Source: a virus
Virus genome (UHGV): UHGV-0095065
Strand: one strand, 5' to 3'
Length of the DNA stretch: 21,484 bases
Notes under the pieces: generated by a model
Databases searched by the model: none
What the model was told of the DNA's origin: nothing
Seen by the model: the letters and a program-made list of their open reading frames with translations, nothing else
In this document: piece by piece, positions 9,428-16,538 of the stretch
How the letters are laid out: every line of letters begins with the position of its first letter
How positions within the stretch are numbered: the first letter of the stretch is position 1
Translations under genes and position numbers: made by a program

Positions 9428-9900
9428 ATATCGGCCTCATCACAACAGTCAATGACTGCCTTTTCCAGTGTGTCGCGGATCTCATCAACCACAATCTGTA
9501 CTTCATTCAGTTGTGATGCGGTCCACCCCCTGTCCCTCTCCAGCCGGTCAGGCCAGGTTTCCAGTACCTGAACTATCGCTTTCACCACGACAGAAAAGGA
9601 CCGCCTGACATCACTGACTGGCACTAGCTGACCAGTTTCCTGCTCAAATTTCAGTCGGTCACGTTCTGACTGGTACCATGCTTTACGCGCATGAGGATCC
9701 ATTTCCTCGTTATCTACAGGCAGAGGAGCTTTCATCAGCTCGGCAAGGATATCTGTCAGTCGGTACAGTTTGAGATTGCTCTCATGACCACCGGCTGGGC
9801 TTATGTTTTTTACCCGAGCCGCAACAGTCTGTCGATGAGCACCGGATAATGCGGCCAGTTGGGAAATATTCAGATGCAGATTTTTTAATTCACGATCCAT
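9424..9900 (-). CDS. Terminase small subunit (Nu1-like, N-terminal HTH)
   Basis: 158 aa; N-terminal LHLNISQLAALSGAHRQTVAARVKN is a helix-turn-helix; RBS GGGGGAG before ATG at 9900; immediately upstream of the large terminase. Confidence 0.8.
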   Translation of the reverse strand: MDRELKNLHLNISQLAALSGAHRQTVAARVKNISPAGGHESNLKLYRLTDILAELMKAPLPVDNEEMDPHARKAWYQSERDRLKFEQETGQLVPVSDVRRSFSVVVKAIVQVLETWPDRLERDRGWTASQLNEVQIVVDEIRDTLEKAVIDCCDEADM

Positions 9901-10120
9901 AACTCCCCCTGAAAATTATGTAAATACACACCAGTGATGAACAAAAAACAACCAAATTCGACACTAAAAATTTTTATTTTTCTATATATCAATAACTTAC
10001 ACTGGTGGTGATGGTGCCATAAAAATCAAAAAATGCGCCTTTTTCCGCGCCGCCCGCCCCGTGTTCAGACCCACCCCACCAGGAGGACCCGCAAAAATGA
10101 TAATGGTTATCATTTTTAAT
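9901..10120 (-). other. Candidate cos region (cosN-like G-rich element about 10045..10060, IHF consensus TATCAATAACTTA at 9987..9999, perfect 11-bp-arm palindrome 10093..10117)
   Basis: Minus strand reads ACGGGGCGGGCGGCGCGG about 150 nt upstream of the Nu1-like start, reminiscent of the lambda cosN end GGGCGGCGACCT; an exact match to IHF consensus WATCAANNNNTTR lies between it and the terminase start, as in lambda cosB. Confidence 0.35.
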
Positions 10121-10319
10121 GTAGTCCGGTTTCTTCCACCATCGCACCGGACAGGCGACTATGAGGGGACAACGCCGCGCTCCGTTAACGCGGTAAACCC
10201 CGGTGTGTATCGTTTTTGATTATCCCCGCACACTCGCGCAGAGGAGTCTCCCTGTCGGGCTGCGGTCTCTGTTAATGCAGGAATACAGCGACAATACCGC
10301 GCATGGATAATAAGGTCGC

Positions 10320-15507: not shown

Positions 15508-15637
15508 CGTGACGTTCCTTTGGGTGGGTGAGCCAACGCCCGGGAGCGATCTGCCCACAGAGAAAGTCACACTGACCACTCCGTAAGCTCACCCCCGAAA
15601 GGCTCTGTGGTTGATATGCGCCGGGCGTGGCGCGGAT

Positions 15638-15663
15638 ACAAAAAAGACCCGCAAAAGCGAGCC
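15638..15663 (-). repeat. 26-bp direct repeat copy A (terminator-like), downstream of the moron gene
   Basis: ACAAAAAAGACCCGCAAAAGCGAGCC; 24/26 identical to copy B; on minus-strand RNA forms GCUCGC-UUUU-GCGGGU (with G-U pairs) followed by CUUUUUUGU. Confidence 0.55.
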
Positions 15664-15683: not shown

Positions 15684-16205
15684 TTATCCTGAGAACTTCT
15701 GATCCGCAATGAAGCGAATCATCATGCTCTTAATATATTCAGACGCTTCTACGTATCGTTCAGCCTCTTCACCTTTGGAAACATATAACTCAGCTCGTTT
15801 ATCACTTCTGAAGTTGGAAAGCGACATCCCTATTTTTATAAGGTCATCGCAATACTCCATAGTTATATATGCTGGCACAAACATATTTCCCGTCGGAGTT
15901 TCATTAATTAATGTACATATTCTGAACTCAATCACACCATCCTTATTCATCCCAAGACATGAGGGTGAACATTCCTCATACCTTCCGCTCTCGGTCATCC
16001 GCTCGATCCTGACCAATCGCTCCATATCCAGCGCAGAGCTTTCACCACTAAGCGAACACGCATAACACTTCTTCAGAAGTTTAACTTCCCGCCTCAGGGA
16101 ATCATGAACACGCGCGTTATGCCTTCTCATCTCATCATATGCATGTTGAATATCACTATACGTAATCACCGAACGGACCTCCGGAAGCGACTGAAAAATA
16201 AACAT
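15684..16205 (-). CDS. Hypothetical protein, AT-rich moron (174 aa); CxxC...CxxxC cysteine pattern; function unknown
   Basis: Start ATG 16205 with strong SD GGAAGGAGGT; MFIFQSLPEVRSVITYSDIQ...KKCYACSLSG...EECSPSCLG...; coding region visibly AT-rich compared with its GC-richer flanks (judged by eye); occupies the position where Stx phages carry stxAB. Confidence 0.75.
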   Translation of the reverse strand: MFIFQSLPEVRSVITYSDIQHAYDEMRRHNARVHDSLRREVKLLKKCYACSLSGESSALDMERLVRIERMTESGRYEECSPSCLGMNKDGVIEFRICTLINETPTGNMFVPAYITMEYCDDLIKIGMSLSNFRSDKRAELYVSKGEEAERYVEASEYIKSMMIRFIADQKFSG

Positions 16206-16246
16206 TCTATACCTCCTTCCAGAAAGAGTCATGTCCTGGTCACGAC

Positions 16247-16272
16247 ACAAAAAAATCCCGCAAAAGCGAGCC
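16247..16272 (-). repeat. 26-bp direct repeat copy B (terminator-like), between tRNA-Arg(UCU) and the moron gene
   Basis: ACAAAAAAATCCCGCAAAAGCGAGCC; same hairpin plus U-tract on minus-strand RNA as copy A. Confidence 0.55.
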
Positions 16273-16286
16273 CGGGAAAATAAGTG

Positions 16287-16363
16287 TGGCGCGTTGTACT
16301 GGATTCGAACCAGTGACCGATTGCTTAGAAGGCAATTGCTCTGTCCGGCTGAGCTAACAACGC
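16287..16363 (-). tRNA. argO: tRNA-Arg (anticodon UCU), argO-like
   Basis: Minus-strand GCGTTGTTAGCTCAGCCGGACAGAGCAATTGCCTTCTAAGCAATCGGTCACTGGTTCGAATCCAGTACAACGCGCCA; cloverleaf with T-loop GGTTCGAATCC, anticodon loop CTTCTAA, encoded CCA. Confidence 0.9.
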
Positions 16364-16376
16364 TGAATACCGATAA

Positions 16377-16453
16377 TGGACCGCCATCGAGGACTCGAAC
16401 CCCGCGCAGCCAGCTTCGAAGGCTGGCGCTCTATCCCGATGAGCTAATGGCGG
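16377..16453 (-). tRNA. argN: tRNA-Arg (anticodon UCG), argN-like
   Basis: Minus-strand CCGCCATTAGCTCATCGGGATAGAGCGCCAGCCTTCGAAGCTGGCTGCGCGGGGTTCGAGTCCTCGATGGCGGTCCA; anticodon loop CTTCGAA; full 7-bp acceptor stem (C1-G72). Confidence 0.85.
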
Positions 16454-16462
16454 TATGTGATA

Positions 16463-16538
16463 TGGTGGCCCTTGCTGGATTTGAACCAGCGACCTGGCGA
16501 TTATGAGTCGCTCGCTCTCACCACTGAGCTAAAGGGCC
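16463..16538 (-). tRNA. ileZ: tRNA-Ile2 (anticodon CAU, lysidine type; Met by anticodon alone), ileZ-like
   Basis: Minus-strand GGCCCTTTAGCTCAGTGGTGAGAGCGAGCGACTCATAATCGCCAGGTCGCTGGTTCAAATCCAGCAAGGGCCACCA; very similar to E. coli ileX/ileY tRNA as recalled. Confidence 0.85.

Follow-up and report, generated by a model that had tools for sequence, protein, structure and literature searches.

The Shiga toxin genes stx2AB and comparable late-operon morons are among the closest described systems to the locus considered here. At this position, stx genes are transcribed from pR' together with the late genes and are controlled by Q (PMC8065619), and in Stx2a phage 1447 the order is methylase, ileZ, argN, argO, stx2A, stx2B, and a NanS-p-like open reading frame (ORF). 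The DNA analyzed was a stretch of 21,484 nucleotides (nt) from UHGV virus genome UHGV-0095065, referred to in full as the window, and the subject is a gene on its minus strand at positions 15684 to 16205. The locus belongs to the late operon of a lambdoid prophage that resembles Stx phages. Since the homologous block of phage 1447 has stx2A after argO, the gene starts exactly where stx2A starts. It shares with stx2AB the insertion point, directly past the argO hairpin and 5' of the NanS-p-like esterase and holin, as well as an atypical base composition, and Q-dependent late cotranscription would be expected for it by analogy (PMC8065619). Unlike Stx, it is a single small gene, and its product has no signal peptide and no relation to the toxin in sequence or fold.

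The gene is a late-operon moron, a known kind of element, and its family is already catalogued as a PHROG without a function. We propose that it represents a moron cassette of the stx junction whose product may be a noncatalytic, late-expressed, protein-binding accessory protein. To this composite we assign a probability of roughly 0.5; what it describes is almost certain, and the uncertainty lies in the mechanism.

A single-gene cassette at the stx junction

The gene and the elements that define the cassette are as follows.

15684..16205, minus strand: coding sequence of the accessory protein, 173 amino acids (aa), 20.0 kDa, isoelectric point (pI) 5.7, a member of PHROG 5091
16212..16216, minus strand: Shine-Dalgarno sequence GGAGG, 6 nt 5' of the first ATG (ATG1), as read from the sequence
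16244..16272, minus strand: upstream copy of a 29-nt repeat, after tRNA-Arg(UCU), with hairpin CUCGC-UUUU-GCGGG and a U7 tract; tRNA-proximal junction
15635..15663, minus strand: downstream copy of the 29-nt repeat, with hairpin GGCUCGC-UUUU-GCGGGUC (7 pairs) and a U6 tract; TerB-proximal junction

The minus-strand ORF at 15684-16205 begins with ATG at 16205 and ends with TAA at 15686-15684, with an in-frame TAG next. Its 173-aa product is identical to RefSeq WP_032185421.1, which is labelled "hypothetical protein." On either side lie the two copies of the 29-nt direct repeat (16244-16272 and 15635-15663), which are 90% identical and spaced 609 nt apart. A terminator-like match was found at 16270-16257 in the upstream copy, and the downstream hairpin, 20 nt past the stop codon, is intrinsic-terminator-like by consensus, with a fold z-score that is not significant. 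In the empty sites of Escherichia coli 2013C-3033 and phage JLK-2012, the hairpin occurs once, between the tRNA and TerB/TciA. Alignment of the empty site with the window leaves one clean gap of 609 bp, and the copy present in the empty site corresponds to the downstream repeat.

The locus bears three of the marks by which a moron, an extra transcription unit in a phage genome in the sense of Juhala and Hendrix, is recognized: extra DNA separating genes that are neighbors in related phages (609 bp relative to 2013C-3033 and JLK-2012), a deviating base composition, and, at the level of a consensus prediction, a factor-independent terminator of its own downstream, with the same hairpin type following four homologues. 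The GC content of the gene is 42.5%, and that of its third codon positions is 43.7%, versus 53.3% for the window (z = -2.9). The gene is the GC minimum of the window; equally low 522-nt segments make up 0.36% of those compared, and all of them overlap the gene. A preliminary description of the gene, made from its sequence, had stated that its base composition deviates from that of the prophage, had proposed a GC comparison over the window as a check, and had suggested separate acquisition as a moron. That comparison revealed a real difference, and separate acquisition is strongly supported, with further evidence from the empty site, the 29-nt repeat at both ends, and the near-identical copies in different backbones.

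The hairpin after argO is common to Stx2a phage 1447, the empty site, and the window, and the sequences diverge immediately past it, which identifies the hairpin as the junction where alternative cargo gets joined. Among 5,426 complete E. coli genomes, 4 carry the gene (99.7-99.9% identity) and about 760 carry the flank. Copies of the cassette occupy different prophage backbones; in that of GE3, a DUF1133-type gene takes the place of Q, and in AUSMDU00014361 homology breaks inside a chimeric tRNA. Diverged homologues of the E. coli clade are bracketed in a similar way. For three of them (P0002, P0003, and P0007), a hairpin GGCTCGC-N4-GCGGGCC with a T tract lies both 5' of the ATG and 3' of the stop codon, and a fourth (P0004) has the same hairpin type after the stop codon and a partial copy upstream, at the truncated end of its contig. 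That the hairpin is a common dispersed repeat was considered and rejected, as it was found only at cassette junctions in the window and in the relatives' loci examined. The mobile unit is a terminator-bracketed single-gene cassette of 609 bp with low GC content, and its exchange most likely took place through recombination inside the hairpin that the sites have in common.

The chimeric tRNA of AUSMDU00014361 (L002 6708-6850) lies beside the cassette and joins, in register, the 3' portion of argO and the 5' portion of the ileZ-like tRNA at their shared T-arm sequence GGATTCGAACCAG. The fusion deletes the remaining array; RefSeq calls a 71-nt tRNA-Met at this site, and ARAGORN recognizes no tRNA. 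The TerB gene of the same genome is a pseudogene with an internal stop.

Conservation and distribution of the family

The gene is real and is maintained by purifying selection. Pairwise ratios of nonsynonymous to synonymous substitution rates (dN/dS) were 0.08-0.26 against four homologues of the E. coli clade, with dS values up to saturation. A single-sequence search of 5.8 billion protein clusters returned 7 relatives and a profile search 12, from E. coli, Salmonella, and metagenomes. Exhaustive phmmer searching of 1.84 billion representatives yielded P0007 (63% identity), P0008 from Salmonella (35%), and the metagenomic P0010 (26%); one further match, to a repeat protein, was regarded as spurious. 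The protein matched the PHROG 5091 profile with an E value of 5.3e-9 over residues 13-172 (profile positions 2-161 of 164), as did 9 of 9 aligned family members (best E value, 5.7e-38). This full-length match makes PHROG 5091 the protein's own family. The family has no name, function, or structure, and membership is therefore silent on mechanism. Homologue GC content was 42.5-45.8% in all members, and low GC content thus characterizes the whole family rather than one donor.

In every relative with sufficient contig reach, the Q antiterminator gene lies upstream of the family member and the holin gene downstream of it, whereas the other neighbors vary. P0002 alone is called in the interval from Q to a P21-type holin, and P0004 is followed by TerB, DUF3927, and holin genes. 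P0008 and P0011 reside in P22-like or lambdoid prophages of Salmonella and have HicAB, DUF2441, Ant-like genes, or an ArtA-like toxin gene as neighbors. A fixed partner gene was rejected, as neighbors differed and no partner recurred. So was an obligatory link to a tRNA array, with an upstream tRNA present in three of the six relatives' loci scanned (L013, L016, and L017). Two genes 3' of P0011, in Salmonella enterica GCA_023420525.1, a gene for a 269-aa ArtA-like, pertussis-S1-like ADP-ribosyltransferase was observed (L016 9763-10572), illustrating that toxin cargo collects in the Q-to-holin slot in Salmonella too.

Further searches added little. No match was obtained by tblastn with the protein, P0008, and P0010 in 50,697 deposited phage genomes or with the protein in 72,556 plasmids, and scans of IMG/VR and of GTDB-representative genomes returned one identical copy each and nothing further. 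Pfam, NCBIfam, and PADLOC scans of the protein and nine relatives gave no match beyond noise, phmmer and profile searches of the PDB returned noise only (E values of at least 0.09), and no literature was found under the PHROG 5091 identifier or WP_032185421.1.

Predicted structure of the protein

No signal peptide or transmembrane segment was found by a hydropathy heuristic used in place of a dedicated predictor (maximum Kyte-Doolittle 19-residue mean, 0.73), and the protein is probably cytoplasmic, consistent with the preliminary description, which had noted that an N-terminal signal peptide was missing. An AlphaFold2 model built on a 9-sequence alignment had a mean predicted local distance difference test score of 83.7 and a predicted template modeling score of 0.79. 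Helices were placed at residues 16-51, 58-62 (short), and 148-170 and strands at 65-70, 76-78, 92-103, 106-119, 122-128, and 138-143. In the predicted fold, a six-stranded antiparallel sheet thus follows a long helix at the N terminus and precedes a helix at the C terminus. Members of the family have mildly acidic pI values (4.8-5.7).

Invariant residues were T15, D18, L37, L44, C47, S51, L52, F94, V142, S143, Y151, E153, I158, and K159, and no conserved catalytic constellation was found among the aligned family members. A Cys/His/Asp catalytic triad was considered and rejected, as H29 is not kept outside the E. coli clade. The preliminary description had likewise recognized no catalytic motif and had named a confident match to a characterized family as grounds for refutation. 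Pfam, NCBIfam, PADLOC, and PDB searches gave no sequence match of this kind, and the sole family match is to PHROG 5091, which carries no function.

Foldseek comparison of the model with BFVD and the PDB returned nothing at an E value of 0.001 or lower. The weak fold relatives were nonenzymatic protein-protein interaction or dimerization modules, including YbjN/DUF2170-like proteins. Among these weak scores was the FP domain of PI31 (Foldseek E value, 0.45; template modeling score, 0.34), which is not significant. The FP domain of PI31/Fbxo7 and the actin-capping protein beta subunit are eukaryotic helix-sheet-helix dimerization modules with 9% sequence identity to the protein. Because these proteins are eukaryotic, the likeness most likely reflects analogy rather than membership.

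Proposed mechanism

The cassette consists of a terminator-like hairpin, a 38-nt leader with a strong ribosome-binding site, the 173-codon gene, and a second terminator-like hairpin, inserted at the hairpin past tRNA-Arg(UCU)/argO in the Q-antiterminated late operon. Given the flanking terminator-like hairpins and the lack of a convincing independent promoter for the full-length form, we infer that transcription would occur mainly by read-through from pR' when Q antiterminates. The full-length protein would then be made mainly on induction, alongside the lysis genes. As a soluble protein of about 20 kDa, it may act without catalysis as a protein-binding module, probably dimeric. During lytic growth, this module could stoichiometrically sequester or adapt a protein of the host or of a rival phage, much as host-takeover or counterdefense factors do. 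This mechanism is suggested by a weak fold resemblance and by the position of the gene. Some observations weigh against it: the structural model was built on an alignment of only 9 sequences, the invariant C47 is not accounted for, and a conserved promoter-like element over ATG1 could mean that the gene is expressed in the lysogen and not only late.

Alternative interpretations

Two further features, both predicted, bear on the possibility of expression in the lysogen.

16204..16232, minus strand: promoter-like element, ATGACT, 17 nt, TAGAAT, with the -10 hexamer ending on the T of ATG1; function predicted
16167..16182, minus strand: putative internal start, GGAGG at 16182-16178 (codons 8-10), 8 nt 5' of the GTG of codon 13 (16169-16167)

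The gene may instead be a protective moron expressed by the lysogen (for superinfection exclusion, antiphage defense, or another host benefit) through a promoter over ATG1 and a short isoform initiated at codon 13, a reading that we consider unlikely, though it is the main rival. In five leaders of the E. coli clade (the window, L013, L018, L019, and L020) that are otherwise divergent, a -35-like ATGAYW is separated by 17 nt from a -10-like TAnnAT, which in all five ends with the AT of ATG1; this geometry is, however, poorly kept in Salmonella and metagenomic members. The element is the sole consensus match in 3 kb scanned, versus 2.8 expected by chance, which is not significant by itself, and an AT-rich spacer between Shine-Dalgarno sequence and ATG can imitate a -10 element. 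Positional conservation is thus the one argument by which the element would qualify as a promoter. A promoter over ATG1 would start transcription near codon 3, so that only the codon-13 form would be expressible. Codon 13 is ATG, GTG, or TTG in 8 of 8 homologues with DNA and is preceded within codons 8-10 by the Shine-Dalgarno-like GGAGG, GAGGA, or GGAGA; it is also the called start of three homologues and the point where the PHROG profile begins. Yet the first 12 residues (MF/I-I-F/I..L.E) are conserved throughout the family, even in the members with a short call, and this favors ATG1 as the genuine start. A HicAB toxin-antitoxin pair is among the neighboring cargo of relatives, but the protein itself matched no defense model in PADLOC-DB v2, and the lone hit of a relative (REase_II; E value, 0.019) is noise. 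If this reading were true, the lysogen would express a short isoform, and the cassette would be a moron of the canonical promoter-gene-terminator type. A broader version, which we regard as doubtful and largely speculative, would make PHROG 5091 an unrecognized class of phage cargo without a confident structural relative, entering the stx slot as a terminator-bracketed cassette and made in two forms, one of full length from the Q-antiterminated late transcript and one 12 residues shorter from a lysogen promoter over the first start codon. Such a protein could be a new antiphage or counterdefense factor or, more remotely, a lysis-released factor with a eukaryotic target, an idea that derives from the eukaryotic origin of the top fold matches.

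Other readings concern the nature of the protein itself. The preliminary description had proposed a zinc-ribbon-like metal site, in which C47/C50 and C79/C83 would jointly bind a structural or functional zinc. The cysteine spacing on which it drew is correct, with KKCYAC at residues 45-50 (C47 and C50), ECSPSC at residues 78-83 (C79 and C83), and 28 residues between C50 and C79. The metal site itself is not supported and is very unlikely. The protein has two additional cysteines, C97 and C119 (6 Cys in 173 aa), and two disjoint C-x2-4-C pairs arose in 4.3% of shuffles and a single pair in 40%, which makes the spacing only slightly unusual. Within the E. coli clade, at identities of at least 62%, C47, C79, and C83 do not vary, but C50 is Arg in all nonidentical homologues of that clade and Asp in P0008 and P0010, and in the latter two proteins, which align end to end, C79 is replaced by Arg or Ser and C83 by Ala or Phe, such that C47 is the sole invariant cysteine across the family. 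Since the 36-residue predicted helix 16-51 contains both C47 and C50, these would not lie on a zinc knuckle. Neither the conserved ligands of a Cys4 zinc module nor ligand pairs on beta-hairpin knuckles were found, a zinc-binding fold was absent among the structure matches listed, and there was no zinc-finger Pfam match. The cysteine pattern is best regarded as an allele- or clade-specific accident; the main practical result is negative, in that annotations should not present the motif as a zinc site. A chaperone-like role, in which a type III secretion system (T3SS) class I chaperone-like or YbjN-like regulator escorts a prophage-encoded effector or toxin, is also highly improbable. The order of secondary-structure elements differs from that of CesT/SycE-like chaperones and YbjN-like proteins, and neither a Pfam match nor the alpha-beta3-alpha-beta2-alpha fold with a profile match was obtained. 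No adjacent cognate effector or T3SS locus was found, and an effector or T3SS context is not consistently present around the family, whose loci contain tRNAs, TerB, holin, Ant-like proteins, HicAB, or unknowns. That the gene is a spurious ORF or a decaying remnant within a noncoding, AT-rich spacer would agree with its annotation solely as a hypothetical protein, its great rarity, and a 118-aa antisense ORF on the plus strand, but is effectively refuted: dN/dS remains at 0.08-0.26 with dS rising to saturation, relatives from E. coli, Salmonella, and metagenomes retain the full-length frame at identities as low as 22-33%, and the gene has a strong ribosome-binding site and a confidently predicted fold.

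Genomic context in the prophage

All genes of the window are on the minus strand. Those surrounding the cassette, in the order of transcription, are listed below.

20503-19415, minus strand: DUF968 gene
19402-19028, minus strand: RusA gene
19031-18210, minus strand: antiterminator Q gene
17985-17788, minus strand: 65-aa ORF between Q and the methylase gene
17637-16579, minus strand: N6/N4 DNA methylase gene
16287..16538, minus strand: array of tRNA(CAU), tRNA-Arg(UCG), and tRNA-Arg(UCU), identified by ARAGORN and Rfam, outside the cassette
16538-16463, minus strand: tRNA(CAU), annotated as Ile/ileZ in related records
16453-16377, minus strand: tRNA-Arg(UCG), argN in the Stx2a phage annotation
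16363-16287, minus strand: tRNA-Arg(UCU), argO in the Stx2a phage annotation, directly preceding the cassette
15507-15076, minus strand: TerB-family gene (Pfam), TciA in phage JLK-2012; context only
15079-14915, minus strand: DUF3927 gene (Pfam), TciB in phage JLK-2012, overlapping the TerB gene by 4 nt
14849-14649, minus strand: small RNA (sRNA) STnc100, full-length Rfam match (147 bits; E value, 4e-33)
14425-12479, minus strand: NanS-p-like esterase gene with DUF1737, SASA, and DUF6645 domains
3' of the NanS-p-like esterase gene, minus strand: DUF826, P21-type holin, lysozyme, Rz, and packaging genes

The accessory gene ranks first among 15 tested window genes in its density of AUA, CGA, and AGA codons (5.7 per 100 codons versus 0.5-4.3), and the three upstream tRNAs read AUA (if CAU is lysidine modified, according to the ileZ annotation in related records), CGA, and AGA. 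The TerB/DUF3927 pair is widespread directly after late-operon tRNAs, and about 760 E. coli genomes contain its upstream flank. The STnc100 sRNA match lies inside the late operon, between the DUF3927 gene and the NanS-p-like esterase gene.

Other stretches of reduced GC content (about 0.46) were observed at 9501-10250 and 17751-18750. The former lies between a small-terminase-like DUF1441 gene and Rz and has no minus-strand ORF of at least 90 aa, and the latter covers the Q antiterminator region. A terminator-like hairpin, CCTTCAGTCCTGAAGG, with a T run is present on the minus strand at 17785-17800, overlapping the end of the 65-aa ORF, and is a candidate for tR', the late-operon terminator that Q would target.

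Significance

As a protein, the product of this gene is one of thousands of uncharacterized phage accessory proteins and would become of interest only given a binding partner or a phenotype, such as defense, counterdefense, or lysis timing. The locus is of broader relevance, as the Q-to-holin slot carries Shiga toxin and other clinically important cargo that is highly expressed on induction. The route into this slot appears to be recombination at the shared terminator hairpin, and cataloguing the other users of the stx junction and the way in which they enter it helps to explain how toxin-converting phages are assembled.
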